DNA from: an uncultured Gammaproteobacteria bacterium
GTDB taxonomy: Bacteria > Patescibacteriota > Microgenomatia > Levybacterales > GWA1-39-11
NCBI GenBank assembly: GCA_964627245.1
Contig: CAZVGS010000001.1
Span: forward strand, 25,256 to 89,255
Length of the DNA stretch: 64,000 nucleotides
Direction of reading: 5' to 3'
Below are positions 12,297 to 34,061 of this stretch, one piece after another. Each line of letters starts with the position of its first letter. Position 1 is the first letter of the stretch. A program made the position numbers and the translations under genes. The notes under the pieces are model-generated. The model saw only the letters and a list, made by a program, of their open reading frames with translations, was not told the DNA's origin and did no database searches.

Positions 12297-12379
12297 GCCC
12301 GAGTGGTGAAACGGTATACACGCAGTGTTCAGAACGCTGTATCCTTATGGGTGTGGAGGTTCAAATCCTCTCTCGGGCA
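12297..12379 (+). tRNA. tRNA-Leu (anticodon CAG)
   Basis: GCCCGAGTGGTGAAACGGTATACACGCAGTGTTCAGAACGCTGTATCCTTATGGGTGTGGAGGTTCAAATCCTCTCTCGGGCA. Anticodon loop TTCAGAA. Confidence 0.85.
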
Positions 12380-12482
12380 CTCAAGAAATCTAAGTAACTT
12401 GTTAGGTTTTGCGTTAAGGCTTTATTTATCGGGGCAGATTGCTATAGCATGTCTTTTTTAGTACAATAAGTAACGTTCATTT

Positions 12483-12568
12483 GGGCTTGTGGTGAAATGG
12501 TATACACGCAGCCTTGAGGTGGCTGTGCCAGTAATGGTGTGGAGGTTCAAGTCCTCTCAAGCCCACCA
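12483..12568 (+). tRNA. tRNA-Leu (anticodon GAG) with encoded CCA
   Basis: GGGCTTGTGGTGAAATGGTATACACGCAGCCTTGAGGTGGCTG...GGAGGTTCAAGTCCTCTCAAGCCCACCA. Confidence 0.85.
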
Positions 12569-12598
12569 AATAGTTCAGTTGAATGAAAACATATTTTG

Positions 12599-12671
12599 GG
12601 GCGATTAGCTCAGCTGGTAGAGCGCTTCGTTTACACCGAAGATGTCAGGGGTTCGAGCCCTCTATCGCCCA
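12599..12671 (+). tRNA. tRNA-Val (anticodon TAC)
   Basis: GGGCGATTAGCTCAGCTGGTAGAGCGCTTCGTTTACACCGAAGATGTCAGGGGTTCGAGCCCTCTATCGCCCA. Confidence 0.85.
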
Positions 12672-12729
12672 CAGAAAGAAAGACCAACATCATTTATAGA
12701 TAAGATAAACTTATCTTCTTGAAAGTTAA

Positions 12730-12802
12730 GCCAAGATTGCCAAGTTGGTCAAGGCGCGTGTCTGAAGAACACGTTATCCGGGTTCGATTCCTGGTCTTGG
12801 CA
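12730..12802 (+). tRNA. tRNA-Phe (anticodon GAA)
   Basis: GCCAAGATTGCCAAGTTGGTCAAGGCGCGTGTCTGAAGAACACGTTATCCGGGTTCGATTCCTGGTCTTGGCA. Confidence 0.85.
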
Positions 12803-12821
12803 CTAATAGTTTGTTTTTTTT

Positions 12822-12893
12822 GCGGCGGTAGTTCAGTGGTAGAACGCTTCCTTGCCAAGGAAGAGGTCGCCAGTTCAAGTCTGGTTCGCCGCT
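12822..12893 (+). tRNA. tRNA-Gly (anticodon GCC)
   Basis: GCGGCGGTAGTTCAGTGGTAGAACGCTTCCTTGCCAAGGAAGAGGTCGCCAGTTCAAGTCTGGTTCGCCGCT. Confidence 0.85.
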
Positions 12894-22202: not shown

Positions 22203-22871
22203 ATGAGAATTCTGATCGTTGAAGATGAAGAAAAAATAGCAAACTCCCTAAAGTTAGGTCTGACACAAGAATCCTACGCAGTTGATGTTAAAAATGACGG
22301 GCAAGAGGGCTACGAGATGGCCTCTTATGAACCTTACGACCTTATTATCCTGGATCTGATGCTTCCGTCTATGGACGGTTTTGAGATCTGCAGGAAGCTG
22401 CGGGAAGAAAAGAACGTTACTCCCATTCTTATGCTGACAGCCCGGGGAGAAATTGAAGATAAAGTGAAAGGTCTTGATATCGGGGCAGATGATTACCTTC
22501 AAAAACCGTTCGCATTTAATGAGCTTTTAGCACGCATAAGAGCGCTTGCAAGAAGACCCAGAAAAACAACCGGATTAACGCTTGCAGTTGAAGACTTGAC
22601 TCTAGACACGGTTACGTCAGAGGTAAAAAGAGGAGGCAAGGCAATTCCATTATCAGGCAAAGAGTTTGCTCTTTTGGAGTATCTCATGCGCCACAAGGGG
22701 ACAATTGTCAAAAAAGATCAAATAATAAGTCATGTTTGGGATTACGACTCTGATGTTATGCCCAATTCTGTTGAAGTTTATATAACCCATCTGAGAGGAA
22801 AGGTCGATAGACCTTTTAAGGGCAAAAAATTAATAACAACAATAAGAGGCTTCGGATACAAAATAGGCTAA
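22203..22871 (+). CDS. OmpR-family response regulator
   Basis: Receiver domain (MRILIVEDEE...DLIILDLMLP) followed by a winged-helix trans_reg_C domain. Confidence 0.9.
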   Translation: MRILIVEDEEKIANSLKLGLTQESYAVDVKNDGQEGYEMASYEPYDLIILDLMLPSMDGFEICRKLREEKNVTPILMLTARGEIEDKVKGLDIGADDYLQKPFAFNELLARIRALARRPRKTTGLTLAVEDLTLDTVTSEVKRGGKAIPLSGKEFALLEYLMRHKGTIVKKDQIISHVWDYDSDVMPNSVEVYITHLRGKVDRPFKGKKLITTIRGFGYKIG

Positions 22872-22872
22872 A

Positions 22873-23883
22873 ATGTTCAGATCGGCACGGCTAAAACTAA
22901 CAGGATGGTACTTACTCATGATAATGTTCGTGAGTCTTTTTTTCTCTGTTGTAATATATGCCAACGTCGACCGCGAACTCTTCAGGCTTGAGCAGATCCA
23001 GCAAATTTCCAAGCAAAGAGCTGAGGAATACTTCGGCTATGCCCCGCCCGCACGGGTTACGACAATAATTGAGGCCAACCTTATCGATGAAGCGCGCGAT
23101 AGGCTTTTGACTGACCTTGCGGTTCTTAACGTCTGCATTTTCTTTGCTGCTGCTTGGGTAGGCTTTTTCTTAGCAGGAAGAACGCTTACACCGATTAGAA
23201 AAATGATTGACACGCAGTCGCGCTTTTTAGCGGATGCTTCTCACGAGTTAAAGACCCCTCTTACCACTCTCAGAACCGAAATTGAAATATATCTGAGGGG
23301 AAAAAAGCATTCACTTCAGGACTCTGAAAAAATTATTCAAAGCAATCTTGAGGAAGTAGTAAGACTTCAGAAGTTAACGGATAATTTGATGGAGTTAACT
23401 ACATTGGAAAAAATCGGAAAAAATATTCCTTTTGAGAAAATTGACATCGTTGAGGTTATGAATGAAGCATCAGACAGCCTCAAAAAGCTGGCAGTCAAAA
23501 AAAAGATAGAAATAATTGAAAGGTATAAAAAAGCTTATATGTACGGGCACAAGAAAAGTCTAGTAGAACTTTTTACTATTCTTTTGGATAATGCTATAAA
23601 ATATAGCCATGAAAAGTCTAAAGTCACTCTTAGCTGTGGCATAAAAAAAGGCTATGTTGTAATTAAGGTTGAAGACCGGGGTATAGGAATTCTCGAGGAA
23701 GACATAGACCATATTTTTGACCGTTTTTACCGCGCAGACAAATCAAGAAATATCTCAAAAATCCCGGGCTATGGACTTGGTCTTTCTATAGCAAGGGAAA
23801 TTGTAAAGCTTCACAATGGCCGGATCTACGCAAAAAGGCTAAAGAAAGGAACTCTATTCACCGTTGAGCTCCCTAGGGCTTAA
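22873..23883 (+). CDS. Sensor histidine kinase
   Basis: N-terminal TM segment, H-box ADASHELKTPLTTL, and a HATPase region. Forms a two-component pair with the upstream regulator. Confidence 0.88.
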   Translation: MFRSARLKLTGWYLLMIMFVSLFFSVVIYANVDRELFRLEQIQQISKQRAEEYFGYAPPARVTTIIEANLIDEARDRLLTDLAVLNVCIFFAAAWVGFFLAGRTLTPIRKMIDTQSRFLADASHELKTPLTTLRTEIEIYLRGKKHSLQDSEKIIQSNLEEVVRLQKLTDNLMELTTLEKIGKNIPFEKIDIVEVMNEASDSLKKLAVKKKIEIIERYKKAYMYGHKKSLVELFTILLDNAIKYSHEKSKVTLSCGIKKGYVVIKVEDRGIGILEEDIDHIFDRFYRADKSRNISKIPGYGLGLSIAREIVKLHNGRIYAKRLKKGTLFTVELPRA

Positions 23884-24503: not shown

Positions 24504-24631
24504 TTTTTTTAGAAATCAATTTCTCTATAAATAAATAATTGTTGTGGTTTGTTATTGCGTGAAAAAATTATAAATTTTGCGTGAAATATTTTTTAATAGA
24601 CTTTGATAACAAATGTTACAGAAGATGTATA

Positions 24632-24660
24632 TTGTGTGAAATATTTTCACGTCATATAAC
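24632..24660 (+). promoter_or_regulatory. Putative promoter (TTGTGT-17-TATAAC) of the TasA-like gene with a palindromic operator in the spacer
   Basis: The 15-bp perfect palindrome GTGAAATATTTTCAC (24636-24650) lies between the -35 and -10. Upstream direct repeats TTGCGTGAAA sit at 24555 and 24577. Confidence 0.45.
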
Positions 24661-24720: not shown

Positions 24721-26085
24721 ATGTCAAGATTTTTTACTGCCAGGATTTTATTGTCTTTTGCAATTCTTACGGGTGCAATTGCTGTAGTAGTTGCTGCAAC
24801 ATTCGCATTCTTGTCGGATACCGAAACCTCCACAGCTAACTTTTTAGAAGCCGGAGATATAGATCTTAAGATAGATAACACAAGTTACTACAATGGCGCT
24901 CAAAGTCCGACAACAACTTGGGATCTTGATGACCTGGACACACACTTATTCTTTAATTTTCAAGATCTTAAACCCGGAGACTGGGGAGAGGATACGATTT
25001 CAATCCATGTAAATACAAATGATGCATGGGCTTGTTTCAACTCGACATTAACCTCTGATGATGACGTCAGCTCAAATGAACCCGAACTGCTTGTTGATGT
25101 ACCTGAAGATAATAATGATGATTTTGACGGTGAACTGGGCAGCAATATCGACTTTCTGCTTTGGGTAGATGATGGCGACAATGTACTTGAACAAGGAGAA
25201 AGCGATAACAATATAATAGCTTTTGGAAAAGCAAATTCTGTTCTACAGAACATGTCAGAAAGCCTCGCAGATTCAGTTTCGGGACTAGTAGTAGATGACG
25301 GACAGCCTTTAAGCGGGGGCCAAACCTATTACATCGCGAAGGCATGGTGCTTTGGAAATATGACTCTTGCTCCACTCCCTGAAGGACAAGGGGTAAATCC
25401 AACTGTTGACGGTGGAATTTTGTGCGATGGCTCAGGTTTTGATAACTCCACTCAAACAGATAAGCTTACTGCAGATATTTCTTTTACAACAGTGCAATTC
25501 AGAAATAACCCTGACTTTGTCTGCTTTGAAGAGCCTCAATTTGCCTGCGGAGAAGAATCGGATCCAATATACGCTGTAGCATTTTCAGAAAACAATCAGG
25601 GTCTAAGAAAAAATGGCACTGCAATTTTGCCTGATAGAACTGATCCGAATGTCGCTTTGGGTGTTCCGCAAAGCGCAGGAATTGCAAATGACGCCCCTGT
25701 AGTTGCAGGTTCATTTTTCAGTCTTGGTTTTCCGCACGCAAATAACCTCAATACTCCCGGAAGCATAGTTTTTGATATGGGTGAGACTTTTTATCCTAAC
25801 AATGGCGGAGACGACATCATGGTGTATGAGGTAACTGGCGGAACTTACCCCGTTGAAACAGTTAAAGTTGAAGCAAAGCTAGAAACCGGTGACTCCTGGA
25901 CTAATCTTGGCACTATTAACCGAGACGGGGGCGTTGAAATGTCACCGCTTACGTCAGCCCGCTACATAAGACTTACCGAAGCAAGCAATATAGCACCATT
26001 TGAAGCAACGGCCGACGGATATGATCTGGATGCAGTTAAAGCATTATGCACACCCGAAAACCAAATCGACCCGGGAGGGCAATAA
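24721..26085 (+). CDS. TasA/camelysin-like secreted protein with a SipW-cognate signal peptide (paralog 1)
   Basis: N-terminus ...AATFAFLSDTETSTANFLEAGDIDLKID and the DLKPGD motif parallel Bacillus TasA/CalY (established family). The protein is acidic and D-rich. Confidence 0.75.
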   Translation: MSRFFTARILLSFAILTGAIAVVVAATFAFLSDTETSTANFLEAGDIDLKIDNTSYYNGAQSPTTTWDLDDLDTHLFFNFQDLKPGDWGEDTISIHVNTNDAWACFNSTLTSDDDVSSNEPELLVDVPEDNNDDFDGELGSNIDFLLWVDDGDNVLEQGESDNNIIAFGKANSVLQNMSESLADSVSGLVVDDGQPLSGGQTYYIAKAWCFGNMTLAPLPEGQGVNPTVDGGILCDGSGFDNSTQTDKLTADISFTTVQFRNNPDFVCFEEPQFACGEESDPIYAVAFSENNQGLRKNGTAILPDRTDPNVALGVPQSAGIANDAPVVAGSFFSLGFPHANNLNTPGSIVFDMGETFYPNNGGDDIMVYEVTGGTYPVETVKVEAKLETGDSWTNLGTINRDGGVEMSPLTSARYIRLTEASNIAPFEATADGYDLDAVKALCTPENQIDPGGQ

Positions 26086-26150
26086 ATTTGAAAATTAACC
26101 ATGAGAAACACGAAAAACTCTTAATGAGTTGGCAGGAAAGGAGGTGAAAT

Positions 26151-27692
26151 ATGACAAAATTTTTAAATACTAGAATTTTACTATCAGGAGCAACAATTTT
26201 AACAGCATCAGCTGTTATTATTGGTGCAACTTTCGCATTCTTTTCAGACACTGAGACTTCTAGTGGCAACACATTTGCCGCCGGTGGTATTGATCTTCTA
26301 GTAGACAGCCAAGCACATTATGCAGGACTTACATGTATCGAAGGCGTATGGGTTGAAGATCAAGCTGAGGAATCAACACGTCCTGATTTAATAGGCTTGC
26401 CATGTTCAGGAACTTGGACCCTAACCGATCTAGGACCTGCTCATACCTTCTTTAACCTCGGAGATCTCAAACCGGGGGACGAAGGAGAGAATACTATATC
26501 TCTTCATGTTGAAAACAACGACGCATACGTTTGTGCTGTAGTTAACAACTTGGAGGATAATGACAATGGTCTTACTGAGCCTGAAGAAGACGATGGCGAT
26601 ACTACAGGAGGTGATGGAGAGGGAGAATTGTCTGCTGCTCTCAGATTCTTTGCATGGGCTGACACAGGCCCAAATGACATCTTCGATGGAGATGATCCGC
26701 TTGAAGGAGACAACATTTGGCAAGAAGGCGAACAGCCTCTATTCTCCAATGGAGAAGGACCTGCAAGTGATGTTTTGGGAGGAGTTTCATACCCTCTTTT
26801 TACGCCTAGTACAAATTCCTTACCAGCAGGAGACACAGCATATGTTGGTCTTTACTGGTGCTTTGGGGAAATTTCGATTGGTGCTGGCACACTTACCTGC
26901 AATGGTGAGCTTGTCAACAACATCACACAGACTGACAGCATGACTGCTGATCTTAGCTTCTATGTTGAACAGGCAAGAAATAACGAGGACTTTACTTGTC
27001 CTACACCTGACCAAATAGAACCTGACAACAATATTACAGTTGTTGTTGAAGAAGAAGATCTTGAAACGGCAAGTCTTGTAACAGCTAAAACGAACGGTAG
27101 TTGGTTTTTCTATAACGATACAGCAGATTCAATCATGACGATTGATCAGTTCCTAGGTGACGGAGGAGAAAACCACATGGATGAAGTTGCAGGCGTCGGC
27201 AGTGCAAAAATGGTACTGCATGAAGCTTCAGCTCGTTACAACATTGCTACCTATAAGTACAGTGATATTAAGCTTGCTGACATAGATGAACTTTCATATC
27301 GAATATATGATGGTTCGGCTTCAAGCCAAACTCCATACCTTCACTTTAATGTTGACTTCAACAATAGTGATACATGGCAGAATCGCTTAGTAATGGTTCC
27401 TTCAGGTGTAGCTTCTGAAACATGGGCTACAGTTGATGCAATCGATGGAGGTAGTGCAATGTGGACATACTCCGGTGCAAACTGGCCAGCTGGCTTAGTT
27501 GACGGCACTGGTTCTACGCCAGGCACGACCCCACGTTCTTGGGATGACATTCTAGCGAATTATCCTGATGCGGAAACCCGCTCAACAGATTCATTCTTAG
27601 GTGTTAGGGTAGGTCACCCTGGGCCTGATGGTGAAATCGGATATGTGGATTGGATTAACTTCAACGGTGAAGTGTCTAATTTCGAGAACTAA
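26151..27692 (+). CDS. TasA/camelysin-like secreted protein with a SipW-cognate signal peptide (paralog 2)
   Basis: GATFAFFSDTETSSGNTFAAGGIDLLVD and DLKPGDEGENTISLHV are paralogous to the first ~280 aa of 24721-26085. Strong SD AGGAGGTGAAAT-ATG. Confidence 0.75.
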   Translation: MTKFLNTRILLSGATILTASAVIIGATFAFFSDTETSSGNTFAAGGIDLLVDSQAHYAGLTCIEGVWVEDQAEESTRPDLIGLPCSGTWTLTDLGPAHTFFNLGDLKPGDEGENTISLHVENNDAYVCAVVNNLEDNDNGLTEPEEDDGDTTGGDGEGELSAALRFFAWADTGPNDIFDGDDPLEGDNIWQEGEQPLFSNGEGPASDVLGGVSYPLFTPSTNSLPAGDTAYVGLYWCFGEISIGAGTLTCNGELVNNITQTDSMTADLSFYVEQARNNEDFTCPTPDQIEPDNNITVVVEEEDLETASLVTAKTNGSWFFYNDTADSIMTIDQFLGDGGENHMDEVAGVGSAKMVLHEASARYNIATYKYSDIKLADIDELSYRIYDGSASSQTPYLHFNVDFNNSDTWQNRLVMVPSGVASETWATVDAIDGGSAMWTYSGANWPAGLVDGTGSTPGTTPRSWDDILANYPDAETRSTDSFLGVRVGHPGPDGEIGYVDWINFNGEVSNFEN

Positions 27693-27709
27693 ATTCTGTT
27701 ACTCTAGCC

Positions 27710-27765
27710 CTGCTGTCCAGGGCTAGAGGGCAGACCGGAGGAAAGGAACGTTTTTTCCGGTCTTC
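27710..27765 (+). terminator. Two consecutive stable hairpins after TasA-like paralog 2
   Basis: CTCTAGCCCTGctgtcCAGGGCTAGAG (11-bp stem), then AGACCGGA...TCCGGTCT. There is no clean U-tract. Confidence 0.4.
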
Positions 27766-27772
27766 CTATTAA

Positions 27773-28807
27773 ATGGGCAAAGTCATTAAGCTTTTTACAA
27801 TCCTTTTTTCCATTGTTTTAATTGCATCTGCATTTTTTGTGGCAATGCTGGCATTTCCTATCTTTGGCAATCAGGCTCTAATTGTGCGCTCGGGATCAAT
27901 GGAGCCTACCATTGGAGTCGGATCAGTCGTTGTAGTTAGACAAAGCAACACTAGCACCTACCAAGAAGGTGATGTCATATCCTTCCGTTATGACAAAGAC
28001 ACGATAATAACCCACAGGATTTTTGAAGTTATAAAATCTCCAAATGGTAATATTTCTTACAAGACAAAAGGGGATGCTAACGAAGAGGAAGATAACTGGG
28101 TTGTTGCTTCAGAAGATATTCTAGGAAGGAACTATTTCACAATTCCGGAATTCGGTAAGTTGCTCGCCTTCGCACGCTCAAAATATGGTTTTCCTTTACT
28201 GATAATCTTTCCCTCAAGTCTTGTCATCTTGCTTGAGATTGTAAGCATCATAAAAGAAGTTAAAAAAGGAAAAAAGAAAAAAGAGTTAATTCACCCGCTG
28301 GTTTTTCCAAAGGATAACGCAGTAGACTACCAAACGGTCTTTACAAAGAAAAATTTTGGTCTTTTGAAGGTCTTACTGCCCTTCGTGGTTTTTGCATTTT
28401 TTATCCAAAGTACATCTGCATTCTTCTCCGATACCGAAACGTCCTCGAATAATTACTTTCAGGCAGCAACGACTTTTGGAACACCCACCCCTACACCTTC
28501 CGTGCCGGTCACTCCAACGCCTACAAATACTCCCACCCCAACACCTACCCCGGGTGGCGGGTGCGGGTCAAGTATTATTATTTCTGGGAATGGAGCGTGG
28601 TCTATCAACAAAGCTTATATAAAATGTATTCTTGAAAATTCCGTTACCCAGACGAATAACACAAATGTTAATACAAACGTAGAGACAAATTCTGATACCG
28701 GCGAAAATTCTTCAAATGGAAATGACGGAGGAGACAACAATACCGAAAGCGGGAACGCAAGTAATACTGTTGAGGTAACAGTCGAAGGCTCAGTAAATGA
28801 AAACTAG
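27773..28807 (+). CDS. sipW: SipW-type signal peptidase I (aa 1 to ~170) fused in frame to a small SipW-substrate-like domain (aa ~196-344)
   Basis: Catalytic Ser motif SGSMEPTIGVG and a His in ITHRIFEV, with TM segments at both ends as in SipW. A second hydrophobic stretch then leads into AFFSDTETSSNNYF, a PT-rich linker and a short C-terminal domain. No stop codon separates the two parts. Confidence 0.7.
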   Translation: MGKVIKLFTILFSIVLIASAFFVAMLAFPIFGNQALIVRSGSMEPTIGVGSVVVVRQSNTSTYQEGDVISFRYDKDTIITHRIFEVIKSPNGNISYKTKGDANEEEDNWVVASEDILGRNYFTIPEFGKLLAFARSKYGFPLLIIFPSSLVILLEIVSIIKEVKKGKKKKELIHPLVFPKDNAVDYQTVFTKKNFGLLKVLLPFVVFAFFIQSTSAFFSDTETSSNNYFQAATTFGTPTPTPSVPVTPTPTNTPTPTPTPGGGCGSSIIISGNGAWSINKAYIKCILENSVTQTNNTNVNTNVETNSDTGENSSNGNDGGDNNTESGNASNTVEVTVEGSVNEN

Positions 28808-29334
28808 CTTACAGGCTTTGCGACTACTACGAAGCGCTTGGAGTCCAGAAATCCTGTGCAGGTGTAAAGAGTGATCCTGGTGTCATTGGTAGAGTTAATA
28901 ATATAACTTTCTGAAGGTTCTACAACTGCAGTATATTCCACCTCAAATTCTCTCTTGTCCCCATTTTTAAGTGTAATAAATATCCTTTCTCCCGGTCTTA
29001 CGGACGGTAGGTCTTTCAGCAAACTCTCCCAGTTGTGCCCATACAATACGCTATTTCCCTTTTGTCCGGGCTCAGGCGTAGAAGCAAGGTAGGAAATGCC
29101 TTTATGAGTTGTTTCCCAATTACTGCCCTCTTTTATTGCGGGAACTATCGGCAATTGCAGATTTATTGAAGGAATTTCAATAGTATTTGGCGGGGTTATG
29201 CTTTTCTGGAGATTACCAGGCTTATTCTCAAAGGATAAAGGCTTTGGGGAGTGACGTAAATACACTAAGTAAAATCCAAAAAACACAAGAATAATTCCTG
29301 TGAGAGTTAACAATCTGGAAATTAAGCGCAACAT
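28804..29334 (-). CDS. Sortase (class E-like)
   Basis: N-terminal TM anchor. Active-site signature RITLYTCTG (TLxTC) and His motif VLYGHN. Confidence 0.8.
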   Translation of the reverse strand: MLRLISRLLTLTGIILVFFGFYLVYLRHSPKPLSFENKPGNLQKSITPPNTIEIPSINLQLPIVPAIKEGSNWETTHKGISYLASTPEPGQKGNSVLYGHNWESLLKDLPSVRPGERIFITLKNGDKREFEVEYTAVVEPSESYIINSTNDTRITLYTCTGFLDSKRFVVVAKPVS

Positions 29335-29363
29335 AGTGACTGAGTGCTCACCTATGTAAGCTA

Positions 29364-29960
29364 TTAGTTAGCTTTTCTCCTCAAGAGGATACCCGTGAGA
29401 GTCAAAAGAACTCCCGCACCAAAAGTTTCAGCAATAAATAGGAGGTTACCTGTAGAAGCAAGGCTTGTACCTTGAGCAGACTGGACAATTGATCCTAACC
29501 CATCAGATCTTCCATCAGTACGTCCATCTGTTCTGCCGTCTCCTCCGCCTGAATTCGTGGTAGACGAAGACTTGCAAGAGTAAGTGATGTTCTTTGCCAA
29601 ATATGAGCCTTCAGAAAGACCCCATGCGGTTCCGTCTGGAATAAATATCCAGCCTTCTTTTTGAAGAACCTTAATTTCATCCTGAGTTAGATTTGATGTA
29701 TTTAACCAATTTGTCTGGATACCTTCTCCATTCTCGCCGCAAAAACACTGCATTGCTTTACCATTTTCCTGCAAGTGTACAGCATCGGATCCTATTTTTG
29801 AGCCAACACCAGGAATGCCGTGTGTTCCATTGTCATAATTTGCGATTACTTCACCTTTTGGCGAAAGACACGAAGGGAATTCAGAGATTTGCTCAGAGTG
29901 AGCGCTTCCTGCGAAGACAAGAAATGCAATTGATAGAAGAAAAAACGATGACTTCTTCAT
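29364..29960 (-). CDS. Sortase-substrate surface protein with an LASTG sorting signal
   Basis: Signal peptide. C-terminal LASTG, then a hydrophobic stretch and RRKAN. GDGRTDGRTDGRSDG repeats. Start chosen at MKKSSFF, just downstream of the consensus promoter. Confidence 0.7.
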   Translation of the reverse strand: MKKSSFFLLSIAFLVFAGSAHSEQISEFPSCLSPKGEVIANYDNGTHGIPGVGSKIGSDAVHLQENGKAMQCFCGENGEGIQTNWLNTSNLTQDEIKVLQKEGWIFIPDGTAWGLSEGSYLAKNITYSCKSSSTTNSGGGDGRTDGRTDGRSDGLGSIVQSAQGTSLASTGNLLFIAETFGAGVLLTLTGILLRRKAN

Positions 29961-29970
29961 AACTGGAGGC

Positions 29971-29999
29971 ATTATAGTATATAACTACAGGTTTGTCAA
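29971..29999 (-). promoter_or_regulatory. Consensus sigma70 promoter (TTGACA-17-TATAAT) for the LASTG-protein gene, near-leaderless
   Basis: Minus-strand read: gcTTGACAaacctgtagttatatacTATAATgcc. The ATG lies ~10 nt after the -10 with no SD. Confidence 0.6.
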
Positions 30000-30000
30000 G

Positions 30001-31251
30001 CTAGAATGGTAGGGGTATTTTAAGAAGCAGTATAAGCAGTCTTTCAATAGACGAAGGGTTGCTTTTGATGAGTTTTATGTTGTCATTATGAAGGTGAAGA
30101 TCCACTTTTGAGTGCTCGTACCCCTCTGCCATAATAGTTGCTTGACTTGTGTTCTTGAGGCTTGGGATCGCAAAATTTCCGTCCTTATCTGTCTTATATG
30201 CTCGATTCTCAACATTAATTGTAGATCCTAGGCCTTTTCCAATATAATCCGTTACCTGTCCTGCAAATACAAAGGGACTATAAGACTTTGCGATTGTATC
30301 AACTGCAACCCTTTTGTAACCGGATTCCTCCCATACTTCAGTTGAACCGCCTGTATTAGTCCAGTAGTTCATGCCCATTAAATGGATGTTTTTTGACATT
30401 AGCTCAAATGCTTCCGTGAGCCACTCATTTTGCTCAACCTCAGACATTTCTCCGTGAATATCGGGAATTGGAGCCCCAAATTCTCCAAGAACAACTTTCC
30501 CCCCGCTTCTTAGTGCGTATTCAGTAACATCCTGGTTGAGCTTTTCAGGCGTTAGTACATAGTGATCAACAACAACAAGACCCCCCAGCTTTGACGTGGT
30601 ATCCTCATCCATAATAAGCTTTGCGACATCTCCATTCATTGAATTAAATCGCGTGTCCACCTTTTTACCAATTTTTGCAAATGCCCTTTTTGTGATTTCG
30701 TATTCTTTGATCAGAAACTCCTTGTGACCTTGTGCATCATTGTTGTGCCTTGGATCACCCGGCCCTCCGTTCTCACACTCAGGACAAGCACTGAACACAT
30801 CTCCGTCGGCAAAAAGACCCGGGTTGTTCAAAATGAATTCCTCAACAAGCCTGGCATGAGTGTCGCGGTCAATTTTGTCATACGAGAACCACCCTTCCCA
30901 GCCTGAAAAATTTCCCCGGAACCACACATTTAAGCCATACCTTCTCGCATAACTTACCCATCTTTTAAGAAACGGCCCAAACTCCTCATCATATGGCGTT
31001 GCTATTGAAACGTGCGTTGCACTTACATCTGCGATTTGCTTAATCTGACGCTCAATTACAACATCAAAAGTGGAGTCATTATTTTTTTCGCGCGCAAGAT
31101 CCCGGGAATACTTCATAGTGTCAACAGATTGAAAATCCCAAAAACGCGTTTTCTCCTGAAGACTTATCCGAGAATTACTGACACTAACCCCAATAACAAT
31201 TGAAAAAAGTGTTATGCAAATTGCCAAGAACGTTACGATTTTTTTATTCAT
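30001..31251 (-). CDS. Membrane-anchored glycoside hydrolase (TIM-barrel, GH5-like) with a C-terminal beta-sandwich domain
   Basis: N-terminal TM. The NEW..E region and VVLGEFGAP resemble GH5 catalytic-residue regions. The family call is tentative. Confidence 0.5.
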   Translation of the reverse strand: MNKKIVTFLAICITLFSIVIGVSVSNSRISLQEKTRFWDFQSVDTMKYSRDLAREKNNDSTFDVVIERQIKQIADVSATHVSIATPYDEEFGPFLKRWVSYARRYGLNVWFRGNFSGWEGWFSYDKIDRDTHARLVEEFILNNPGLFADGDVFSACPECENGGPGDPRHNNDAQGHKEFLIKEYEITKRAFAKIGKKVDTRFNSMNGDVAKLIMDEDTTSKLGGLVVVDHYVLTPEKLNQDVTEYALRSGGKVVLGEFGAPIPDIHGEMSEVEQNEWLTEAFELMSKNIHLMGMNYWTNTGGSTEVWEESGYKRVAVDTIAKSYSPFVFAGQVTDYIGKGLGSTINVENRAYKTDKDGNFAIPSLKNTSQATIMAEGYEHSKVDLHLHNDNIKLIKSNPSSIERLLILLLKIPLPF

Positions 31252-31254
31252 ATA

Positions 31255-32745
31255 TTATTTTGCTATACCTATTACATCCTGCTTTACCTTCGGAACGGTT
31301 ACAAAACCCTCTTTTGATACATGAGAGGTTGCCGCATGTTTTAAGTTTACAGGATTGTACCATTTCATTTGCGTTATATCAGCTTTGAGTCTGATTGTAC
31401 CAGCTTTGTTAGCGTCCGGAATATAAATTATTGTTGTACTTTTACCTGAGGCTGCAATAGCTCCGCTTTGCTTATTTAGCCTCATAAGACTCAGGTCGGG
31501 TCTTAAGTCCTCCCACTTTTGCTTTTGAAGAAATGCTTTTGAAATCCCCAGTTGAAAGGCGCCAGGAAATCTCAAAGCTTTTTTGTAAGAAGAATTGCCC
31601 CAGTGACCCATGAAATTATCTCCCTTTGCTATCTGCCAAACCCCATGTGCCCCATATGAGTGCCCCTTTGCGCCGGAAAGAGCACATGCCCAAAAGGCAA
31701 GGCGTTGATGGTATGCTCCAAAATTACCCATTATTCCCTCATACCAGGGTTCCAAATTAATGATAATTTTCTTCGAGCTTTCTATTGCTTCCCTCATAAA
31801 TTGAAGCCTGTTAACATCATGACCGGACTGAATTGAATTAACGTCAATCATGCCGCCAAAATATGTATCCGCTTTGACCATACCGCTTACGTGTGCAGTC
31901 AAAAGCGAATTGTTGTAATTGATTTTTCTGAGGTTAGAAAGCGCGCTTTTCCACTTATGGATTCTTTGAGACAAATTCTTTTTAGGCGCTTTTTTGAATT
32001 TCTTGAGTAACGAATAGACATTTTCGTTAGTGCTTAGAATTCTTTTGAAAATGTCCTTCACTCTGCCTGTTTTTTCTCCATAAAAGACATCTACCTCACC
32101 GGAAAGTGAGAAAATAGCCGGATAATAGCCGTAGCGCGCAAAAACTTCATTAGCAAAGTCATTAAATTTTCTAACTCCAAATAAATCTATATGATGACCC
32201 CACCCCAGAAATAGCATCGGCAAAAGTTCTGCCTCACAAATTTTATCAATTCTTTTATCAAGCGCGTCAAAATAACTCTCATTTACTGAAAAATCTTTAC
32301 GGAATGGATGACCATTGTCGTTATGGGCTTCTTCTGAGAAGAAAGGAATTTCAGGGGGCACACCAACAACAAGTTGTATGGCATTAAAGCCCTGCTTTTT
32401 GCGTTTTATTATGTACTTTTCAAATTCTTCATTTGAAATTCTTTTTGTGGCACCATACCAGATAGTGTCAGACAAAAGAAATATGGATTTTCCACCCAGC
32501 TTAAAGTAATCCTTTCCGCTTGAAAGCAACAGTTTGACTGAAGTCTTTCTTAGCACAAAAGCGCCCTCTTCCTTTGCTGTTCTATAGATATATGACCCTT
32601 TTTCACCTGAAAAACGGAAATAAGATTTGCCATCCGCCTTTTGAAAAATCAAAGCTGTGTGCTTTGTTCTGCCTGTTATTAATACCGTTGTATTTTTGCC
32701 GTAACTTTTACTCAAAGCTACTTCTATTGGCTTACAATTGAGCAT
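31255..32745 (-). CDS. Putative glycoside hydrolase (DUF4038/GH140-like) with a C-terminal collagen-binding-like domain
   Basis: TIM-barrel-like core with IINLEPWYEGI. Tentative family call. Confidence 0.4.
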   Translation of the reverse strand: MLNCKPIEVALSKSYGKNTTVLITGRTKHTALIFQKADGKSYFRFSGEKGSYIYRTAKEEGAFVLRKTSVKLLLSSGKDYFKLGGKSIFLLSDTIWYGATKRISNEEFEKYIIKRKKQGFNAIQLVVGVPPEIPFFSEEAHNDNGHPFRKDFSVNESYFDALDKRIDKICEAELLPMLFLGWGHHIDLFGVRKFNDFANEVFARYGYYPAIFSLSGEVDVFYGEKTGRVKDIFKRILSTNENVYSLLKKFKKAPKKNLSQRIHKWKSALSNLRKINYNNSLLTAHVSGMVKADTYFGGMIDVNSIQSGHDVNRLQFMREAIESSKKIIINLEPWYEGIMGNFGAYHQRLAFWACALSGAKGHSYGAHGVWQIAKGDNFMGHWGNSSYKKALRFPGAFQLGISKAFLQKQKWEDLRPDLSLMRLNKQSGAIAASGKSTTIIYIPDANKAGTIRLKADITQMKWYNPVNLKHAATSHVSKEGFVTVPKVKQDVIGIAK

Positions 32746-32753
32746 AGACGATC

Positions 32754-34061
32754 CTATTTATAGGAGGGTGTGAAATTCGGAAAGGAGAAATTGAAATTGA
32801 ATGAAAACCGCTTTTTTACTGGTGCGGTAAGTCCAAGAAGAACAGTTGCGGGATTTACTTCTAAAGTAACATCCGACATCCTTACAGCCTCTCCTCTTTT
32901 AATGTCTTTTAAGAGTATAGCGTTTTTTGCTAGGCCTACCGGTAATGTATTAGAATTCTTTTTGAAATTTGAAATTTGCCCATACACCATATCTCCGCCT
33001 ATCCCGTCCAGCCTATCCCCTGCCTTCAAATTTTTCTTTGCAACTGTCATGGTTGTAGTCTTTTGGTGTGAATTGTTTATCGTCACTTCTTTGTATAAAG
33101 CAGCAGAAGCTATAGTTTGCATAACCTCAAGGTGGCACAAGTGATAAGGTTCAAATAGTAAATAATACGGCCCATCTCCGAGGCTGAGGTATCTTAGGTA
33201 CTTCACTTGGTTTGGGTCTTTATGTTTTGCTATTACGAATATTCCGGGAAATAGGTTGAGGCCAATTACATAATCCACTATTCCTCCTTTAGGAATTTTT
33301 TTGAAGTCAAATTTCTTAAGTATGTCTTTAAGCTCGTCCACTCTTGTCCCTACCATGCCGTCCTTCATAACTTTCATTCCATAGTAGTTTGCGACCAAAT
33401 TCATCTCAATTGACTGCTTTGTTCCATCTGTAAAAGAAACAGTTTGCCTGACATTCAGCCCCTTGTCATCTGCCCATTTCTGCATTTTAGACTGCGTCGC
33501 ACGCTCGTCCATGTAACGTTTCATATTTCCGGCAACAATTACCTCAAAACCCATAAGACGCGCTTGCGAGATGAGGCGTGTTAGACTCCCGGGCTGGTCA
33601 CCCAAAACATCGGTTATCAGAACACCCTTTTTATCAGCCAAAGCTTTTAGCTTGTGGCCTACGGTTGCCTGAAGCTCGGGGTTCATTGTGATCAAGTGCT
33701 TCTTTGAATTAATAGTGGCCAATGCAATTTGTGTTCCGTAATCGACCGTTCCGGACACTTCAAGAACAACGGCATTTTTGTATTGCTTTATAAGAGTAAT
33801 ATCTGAAGAAACAGCAATAATTCCATGTGCTGTGAGCTCTTTAACCTCAAAAATTGACGCTACTGCCAATGCCTTTATGCCGTTTTTGTTAAGATATTCA
33901 ACGGCTTCATCAGCACGCCTTGTAATAATAAGGGGAATTTTGATATACGGACTCTTTGAAGCAGAGGAGATAAATCCAAATCCCATAAACCCAAGACCGC
34001 ATACAATAACTTCAAGCGGTTTTTCGAGTCTTTCAAGGTCATGAATGAGCTTCGCGTACAT
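32754..34061 (-). CDS. NAD(P)-binding dehydrogenase with a C-terminal SAF domain (COG4091, homoserine-dehydrogenase-like)
   Basis: N-terminal Rossmann motif VIVCGLGFMGFGF. C-terminal SAF-like region LLKDIKRGEAVRMSDV. Confidence 0.6.
   Translation of the reverse strand: MYAKLIHDLERLEKPLEVIVCGLGFMGFGFISSASKSPYIKIPLIITRRADEAVEYLNKNGIKALAVASIFEVKELTAHGIIAVSSDITLIKQYKNAVVLEVSGTVDYGTQIALATINSKKHLITMNPELQATVGHKLKALADKKGVLITDVLGDQPGSLTRLISQARLMGFEVIVAGNMKRYMDERATQSKMQKWADDKGLNVRQTVSFTDGTKQSIEMNLVANYYGMKVMKDGMVGTRVDELKDILKKFDFKKIPKGGIVDYVIGLNLFPGIFVIAKHKDPNQVKYLRYLSLGDGPYYLLFEPYHLCHLEVMQTIASAALYKEVTINNSHQKTTTMTVAKKNLKAGDRLDGIGGDMVYGQISNFKKNSNTLPVGLAKNAILLKDIKRGEAVRMSDVTLEVNPATVLLGLTAPVKKRFSFNFNFSFPNFTPSYK

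Follow-up and report, generated by a model that had tools for sequence, protein, structure and literature searches.

A TasA/SipW-type gene cluster in a Patescibacteria bacterium whose signal peptidase is fused to an apparent substrate of its own

Do adjoining genes for two secreted proteins, a signal peptidase, a sortase and a sortase substrate make up one system at the cell surface, and what would such a system build? The question is raised by a 64-kb stretch of DNA from the Candidate Phyla Radiation (CPR, also called Patescibacteria), which as a whole is called the window below. Five open reading frames (ORFs) occupy positions 24721-29972 of the window, exactly as an earlier note had placed them. 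On the plus strand lie ORF A (24721-26085, 454 amino acids (aa)) and ORF B (26151-27692, 513 aa), TasA-like subunit paralogs 1 and 2, and ORF C (27773-28807, 344 aa), a SipW with a C-terminal passenger, separated by gaps of 65 nucleotides (nt) between A and B and 80 nt between B and C. On the minus strand lie ORF D (28804-29334, 176 aa), a sortase that runs towards C, with an overlap of 4 nt, and ORF E (29364-29972, 202 aa; called by NCBI as 198 aa starting from Met5, nt 29960), the sortase substrate. We find that A-B-C very probably belong to the TasA/SipW type of extracellular fibre operon, that D and E are a separate cassette, and that C carries an apparent substrate of its own.

All named close homologs come from metagenome-assembled genomes (MAGs) of CPR/Patescibacteria, so the source organism belongs to this group, as the earlier note had supposed. 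The organism is most likely monoderm. GC content stays at ∼40% across the window without a break in composition, and no convincing intrinsic terminator was found between the genes. Across the 64 kb, the SipW-type signal motif was detected in ORFs A, B and C only, so that its clustering is not due to chance.

A and B share 36% identity (E=1e-42) over their N-terminal ∼280 residues and are unrelated beyond, and both contain TFA↓F(L/F)SDTETS (the arrow marks the predicted cleavage) and DLKPGD, in agreement with the claim that they are paralogs with TasA/CalY-like N-termini. In each, the signal peptide covers aa 1-29, with SipW cleavage predicted at A29↓F30 by aligning TWA↓AFNDIK of TasA with TFA↓FFSDTE; residue 28 is the first of mature TasA (Roske et al., 2023; PMC10151520). 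The predicted mature N-terminus of A is the conserved strand FLSDTETSTANFLEAG, followed by a TasA-like domain to ∼aa 268 and by a C-terminal domain at 25528-26082 of the plus strand (aa 270-454), a conserved module of ∼175 aa. In B, behind the conserved strand (aa 30-47) come a TasA-like jelly-roll (∼aa 48-290) and then another all-beta domain (aa 295-513).

Of the family models that the earlier note had singled out, B passed TIGR04088, the SipW-cognate signal peptide, with 27.6 bits (cut-off 19), and it scored 28.1 bits for PF12389 (cut-off 22.5), where the alignment is short (see below). For A there was no NCBIfam report of TIGR04088, and a custom hidden Markov model (HMM) of the signal motif matched it at E=6e-9. 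Among the matches listed, a precomputed PF12389 match was present in about half of 120 B homologs. The Pfam name of this family, Peptidase_M73 or camelysin metallo-endopeptidase, would favor reading A and B as metalloproteases of the camelysin type, but neither protein has an HExxH motif, and the nearest fold is that of a structural fiber protein, TasA. We therefore rejected this reading, and consider the chance that it is right to be very small.

The fold evidence comes from a confident model of B that AlphaFold2 made with 95 homologs and that has a mean predicted local distance difference test (pLDDT) score of 88.6. The model has a signal-peptide helix (aa 5-27), disorder at aa 23-43, and two all-beta domains. 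When it was compared with the PDB by Foldseek, the cryo-EM structure of the TasA fiber, 8aur_A, was the top match (E=1.8e-5, probability 1.0) and the sole match at E<=1e-3; the jelly-roll of TasA type that the earlier note had anticipated is present in the model of B. Several results weigh against the TasA assignment. The score of A against PF12389 (20.9 bits over aa 12-151) falls under the gathering score of 22.5, and the part of B aligned to that family is only aa 17-54. Searches of PDB sequences by phmmer with A and B returned nothing relevant, and no TasA, and the profile of the 95 homologs had no match at all among PDB sequences. When this profile was aligned by hhalign to mature TasA, whose sequence was checked against 8aur_A, 25 columns were paired with a probability of 1.6%. 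The weak match places the invariant Q274 of B opposite Q232 of TasA, a conserved residue of the donor-strand pocket (Roske et al., 2023); taken alone, this pairing is only suggestive.

The best-conserved part of the B family is the very stretch that is disordered in the monomer model. D33, E35, N40, and G45 are invariant, and T27, F30, F31, T36, S37, F42, A44, D48, and L49 are conserved in at least 90% of sequences, so that positions 27-49 hold 13 residues at this level, compared with a mean column identity of 36% over the whole protein. These observations bear on the possibility that A and B are SipW-processed, lectin-like adhesins, surface-bound or secreted, which do not polymerise, and whose N-terminal segment is merely an extended recognition site for the peptidase. 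Conservation, however, runs ∼20 residues past the predicted cleavage site, which is more than signal peptidases normally read, and it is kept even in passengers (described below) that have no TasA-like domain. The nearest solved fold, moreover, is the fiber form of TasA. We judge the non-polymerising alternative to be unlikely.

Beyond the shared region, the C-terminal domains of A and B differ, as had been claimed, but the long acidic, D-rich character ascribed to them belongs elsewhere: the most acidic runs (residues 100-170 of A and 125-200 of B, ∼28% D+E) form an insertion within the shared N-domain, whereas the divergent C-terminal domains have merely 14.5-15.7% D+E. Both C-terminal domains recur in a set of 83 CPR loci that were fetched via TasA-like genes. 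TasA-like paralogs end in the module of A in 24 of these loci, and the domain of B was found again in 30. Matches to F5/8 type C domains, all below threshold, were obtained for 10 of 19 members of the A module (best E=7e-4), and a profile of this domain retrieved only noise from PDB sequences. By eye, without alignment, a C-terminal sequence like FVKYVRLTD...GFDLDAVEAL can be seen in a SipW-fused passenger (P0142). The module of A is possibly a beta-sandwich of the discoidin/galactose-binding kind.

The peptidase part of ORF C (27773-28297 of the plus strand, aa 1-175) consists of a first transmembrane segment (TM1), the catalytic domain, and TM2. It scored 99.8 bits against TIGR02228, the archaeal-type signal peptidase I (cut-off 51.85), which bears out the SipW-type signal peptidase expected next to the subunit genes, compared with 29.3 bits against the bacterial LepB-type model TIGR02227, under the cut-off of 47. 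With 121.7 bits, it was also under the cut-off of 190 for NF046067, the Bacillus SipW equivalog; C is the same type of enzyme as Bacillus SipW, and not an equivalog. Across 79 homologs, H81, D101, and D107 never vary, and at least 90% keep S42. In the AlphaFold2 model of C, pLDDT reaches ∼90 or more over aa 1-150 and 88 over aa 161-170, and the best matches of this model among PDB folds were human SEC11C (7p2q_A) and SEC11A (7p2p_A), at E=8.8e-7, followed by SipA of S. pyogenes. Judged by its sequence, the peptidase is a SipW, or signal peptidase I of the endoplasmic reticulum (ER)/archaeal type, with its catalytic residues intact. The class of the signal peptides and the order of the genes suggest that it cleaves the adjacent TasA-like proteins.

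Past aa 175, C continues with a Lys-rich loop, TM3, a second SipW-type motif (AFFSDTETSSNNYFQAA), a Pro/Thr linker, and a module of ∼85 aa. The earlier note had overlooked this third copy of the motif in the locus (...STSA↓FFSDTETSSNNYFQAATTFG, residues 216-235) and the passenger behind it (residues 217-344). The internal signal peptide lies at 28358-28480 of the plus strand and comprises TM3 (aa 196-218, a helix in the AlphaFold2 model), a predicted cleavage site at A216↓F217, and the strand FFSDTETSSNNYFQAATTFG. The motif scored 20.5 bits against TIGR04088 (cut-off 19) over aa 207-233, and residues A216, D220, S224, N227, A231, and F235 around it are conserved in at least 90% of homologs. 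Since Lys-rich loops precede TM3, a positive-inside distribution would place the motif on the active-site side of the membrane. The passenger itself (28421-28807 of the plus strand, aa 217-344, 128 aa) has a donor-strand-like N-terminus, whose FFSDTETS matches A and B, a Pro/Thr linker, and a Cys-flanked, N/T/G-rich module; neither a sorting signal nor a further TM segment was found in it. A frameshift or assembly artefact was considered as the source of the fusion and rejected, the ORF being continuous and the architecture present in more than 100 independent assemblies.

The fusion is conserved among relatives of C. An internal TM helix with the motif, located ∼30-40 residues after the second helix of the peptidase, was present in 114 of 120 database homologs, a set that was retrieved with the full-length query and is therefore biased towards fusions. 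In the 83 loci, at least 25 of the 70 complete SipW genes are fused, a further 3 fusions were detected by HMM alone, and in 12 of the 70 cases the same motif element is the immediate downstream gene. The regular expression used to detect substrates was crude, missing the HMM-found fusions of loci L037, L039, and L080 and the divergent motifs of L001 and L003, so that the fused fraction is a lower bound. Counting against our interpretation of the fusion, 33 of the 70 SipW genes had neither a fused nor an adjacent substrate that the regular expression could find, so a partner is not demonstrably universal, and the pLDDT of the passenger in the AlphaFold2 model is mostly below 55 (36-59 per 10-residue block). 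One locus (L002, 9428-11096) has tandem SipW genes, a fused one of 355 aa and then a plain one of 180 aa.

Passengers vary among the homologs of C, and include lamin-tail domains, RTX repeats, or the N/T/G module seen here. This module of ∼85 aa (28640-28804 of the plus strand, aa ∼290-344 of C; also in proteins P0335, P0342, and P0376) follows the pattern I-S/T-G-N-G-A-x-S ... N-T-G-x-N ... N-T-G-G ... T-G-x-A. It is present once in the passenger and in 2-5 tandem copies in many proteins of ∼200 aa and ∼410 aa, and a search with it returned 352 representative matches at E<=1e-3; neither the passenger nor the module matched a family in Pfam or NCBIfam. In six loci (L005, L006, L011, L044, L063, and L077), the passenger fused to SipW consists of a small TasA-like domain (SYFNDxE...LDF) and then a long, very acidic tail rich in E, P, and T. 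Such passengers, which occur in many loci of Parcubacteria type, resemble the folded domain of TapA with its disordered C-terminus.

Whether the passenger is released was considered next to the possibility that the extension stays uncleaved, and either auto-inhibits or otherwise regulates the peptidase, or tethers the base of a fiber to the membrane by donating its strand while anchored. The mature passenger would have no other anchor, TapA co-localises with the membrane (Roske et al., 2023), and SipA of S. pyogenes, which the title of its PDB entry connects with pilus assembly, is among the best fold matches of C, all of which fit a retained extension. In contrast, TIGR04088 recognizes the internal motif as it does genuine substrates, the enzyme keeps its catalytic residues, and the same element is found in separate genes with an ordinary N-terminal SipW-type signal peptide (P0345, P0349, and P0379), which argues for a normal, cleaved precursor. 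Retention of an uncleaved extension thus seems to us improbable.

We propose that these parts work together in the following way, and rate the scheme as a whole (cleavage, a donor-strand fiber, and a self-processed initiator) as somewhat better than an even bet. A and B would be exported, and the dedicated SipW encoded by C would cut them after TFA (A29↓F30), exposing the conserved N-terminal strand F(F/L)SDTETSxxN.F.AG, which is disordered in the monomer. The exposed strand would insert into the jelly-roll of the next subunit by donor-strand exchange, as in Bacillus TasA. In the resulting fiber, each kind of subunit would bear a different C-terminal beta-sandwich head, probably one that binds a ligand or sugar. 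SipW would be made as a fusion with TM3, the second cleavage motif, and the passenger, and would cut at A216↓F217, in cis or in trans. The released 128-aa passenger, roughly a donor strand on a Pro/Thr tether with a small head, would act like TapA by giving its strand to the first subunit, and so would start or cap the fiber, while the fusion would tie the amount of passenger to the amount of peptidase. That the passenger is a self-processed, TapA-like initiator is the more tentative part of this proposal, and we would put its chances a little below even.

The tapA-sipW-tasA operon of B. subtilis (8AUR) offers the closest comparison. As here, its SipW is a dedicated enzyme of the ER/archaeal type, its substrates combine a T-[WF]-A↓x-F-x-D signal and N-terminus with an LKPGD motif, and its subunit is a jelly-roll (a predicted one in our case). 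Mature TapA begins with AFHDI and mature TasA with AFNDI, secretion of TapA residues 44-57 alone supports biofilm formation, and the C-terminal region of TapA is dispensable; tapA runs into sipW, its stop codon overlapping the start codon of the latter, and TapA is of low abundance, similar to SipW (Roske et al., 2023). The proposed partner in C would likewise be minor, with an N-terminal strand as its essential part, and it is genetically coupled to sipW. Its strand is like that of the subunits and passes TIGR04088, but neither an immunoglobulin (Ig)-like domain nor sequence homology to TapA was found in it, so it is proposed to work like TapA and not to be a member of that family. The CPR operon also differs from that of B. 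subtilis in its order (subunits, sipW, partner), in having two subunit paralogs (1-4 motif-bearing genes in other CPR loci), in subunits that are twice as long, with an extra C-terminal beta-sandwich and an acidic insertion, in a partner that is fused to SipW behind TM3 and lacks the Ig-like domain of TapA, and in a SipW that stays under the equivalog cut-off (121.7 compared with 190 bits).

The remaining two ORFs raise the question of whether the fibers and the sortase belong together. D matches PF04203 (87.4 bits) and TIGR01076 (51.3 bits, cut-off 39.35) and has a visible TLYTC active-site motif; it stays below every cut-off specific for sortase classes A-F, the best being class D (51.9 vs. 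165 bits). E, which had no match in Pfam, is composed of a Sec-type signal peptide, a Cys-containing domain, a (DGRT)n stretch, LASTG, a TM segment, and RRKAN, its C-terminus reading LASTG-NLLFIAETFGAGVLLTLTGILL-RRKAN, and LASTG is retained in 64 of 81 E homologs. A sortase on the opposite strand beside an LASTG-ended substrate is thus present as described, but the combination of TasA-like fibers with sortase anchoring that had been read into it, for instance with E as the wall anchor of the fiber, was not supported. It could be argued for on the grounds that both here and in the closest, fully syntenic relative (L084) the two gene sets converge and overlap, that 8 of the 83 TasA/SipW loci have a sortase within 10 kb (a count for which no formal random-window expectation was computed), and that proteins with LPITG directly follow a SipW fusion in two loci (L025, 12170-12988; L049, 11088-11885), where no sortase gene lies within 10 kb. 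Against it, no sorting signal was found in A, B, or C, including the passenger. In the three other loci examined (L084, L085, and L086), an E homolog is directly followed by a sortase of ∼175 aa, but TasA and SipW stand beside this pair in L084 only, and in L085 and L086 it lies within glycosyltransferase/polysaccharide clusters that have neither. None of the 83 TasA loci contains an E homolog, and in C. perfringens the sortase flanking sipW-bsaA is dispensable for polymerisation of BsaA (Obana et al., 2020; PMC7395162). Because the E-sortase pair recurs alone, sortases are rare near TasA/SipW genes, and sorting signals are missing from A, B, and the passenger, D and E are a separate two-gene cell-wall-anchoring cassette that merely adjoins A-B-C; an integrated system is, in our estimate, very unlikely.

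A perfect sigma-70 consensus (TTGACA, 17 nt, TATAAT; 12/12) abuts ORF E at 29971-29999 of the minus strand. Its -10 box ends 11 nt before the NCBI Met5 start codon (29960), so that the E-sortase transcript would be nearly leaderless. The flank of the pair (30001-34061, minus strand) encodes an apiosidase-like glycoside hydrolase (PF13204), a DRL-type oxidoreductase with an SAF domain, and an unannotated protein of 416 aa. The same three genes are syntenic in L084 (3944-7880), which suggests a cell-envelope or glycan-processing neighborhood.

On the other side of the locus, an OmpR-type response regulator (22203-22871) and a histidine kinase are encoded at 22203-23883, 1-2 kb upstream of A, and this two-component pair may be linked to the A-B-C operon. 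In the 217-bp gap upstream of A, three copies of TGYGTGAAAWATTT lie at 24556-24646 of the plus strand, spaced by 22 and 55 nt; the 64 kb contain no others, and 0.39 would be expected. Given the regulator and kinase nearby, the copies are candidate binding sites that may serve a regulator, perhaps the OmpR-type one. The 14-mer showed no convincing conservation in the syntenic locus L084. Elsewhere, the window holds 14 tRNA genes, six of them clustered within 600 nt at 12297-12893 of the plus strand.

Operons with some of these features are known from other organisms. The sipW-bsaABCRSD and srtB genes of C. perfringens (Obana et al., 2020) resemble the present locus in combining SipW with several secreted paralogs that lack LPXTG, a two-component system nearby, and an adjoining sortase gene, but sipW comes first, the two-component system is inside the operon, BsaA is a single-domain protein of ∼23 kDa, unlike the two-domain A and B, and no fusion of SipW to a substrate was described. 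The archaeal pili of AbpA and AbpB (Wang et al., 2022; PMC9245690) are built of TasA-homologous jelly-roll subunits by donor-strand complementation, which is what we propose here, and have a larger minor partner that was suggested to be an initiator or adhesin, as suggested for the partner in C. They differ in having no dedicated signal peptidase, single-domain subunits, and a far remoter sequence similarity. Chaperone-usher pili (type 1 and P) share with our proposal both donor-strand exchange and adhesion by lectin domains; here, in contrast, there is neither chaperone nor usher, and a lectin-like domain would be present on every subunit rather than at the tip only.

The CPR gene set itself is widespread. 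B has more than 1,200 homologs, of which the named ones are all from CPR (Moranbacteria, Kaiserbacteria, Parcubacteria, and Minisyncoccia), and a pattern scan of one genome per species found relatives encoded in at least 458 CPR species genomes. The arrangement is also recurrent: in 68 of the 83 loci, sipW stands directly downstream of TasA-like genes and has the same orientation, and loci contain 1-4 (mean 2.3) motif-bearing ORFs. NCBI and JGI already list some B homologs as "TasA family protein" or "SipW-dependent-type signal peptide-containing protein", and Patescibacteria are listed among the phyla with PF12389 homologs (Wang et al., 2022). Beyond that listing, our literature search found no paper characterising a TasA/SipW system in CPR; the earlier suggestion that the system is uncharacterised there stands to this extent, but not the rarity or novelty it implied. 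The unreported feature is the fusion of SipW to its apparent own substrate, the rest of the gene set being common and already annotated.

If the module is an ordinary matrix-fiber operon, the finding amounts to a correct annotation only. If the proposal is true, C is a natural "Rosetta-stone" fusion, in which SipW and a TapA-like strand donor form a stoichiometric unit. The fusion would then be evidence, drawn independently from evolution, that SipW is functionally coupled to an initiator of TapA type, as has been proposed in Bacillus, and would also support the idea that an initiator needs little beyond its N-terminal strand. In the way of life of cultivated CPR bacteria, attachment to host cells has a central place, and it has so far been tied mainly to type IV pili. 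It is conceivable, although we think it doubtful, that the peptidase and fiber initiator are made as one self-cut polypeptide and that lectin-headed fibers serve these episymbionts as an attachment organelle, in addition to type IV pili or in their place. A second widespread fiber system with interchangeable lectin-like heads would supply new candidate genes for host recognition.

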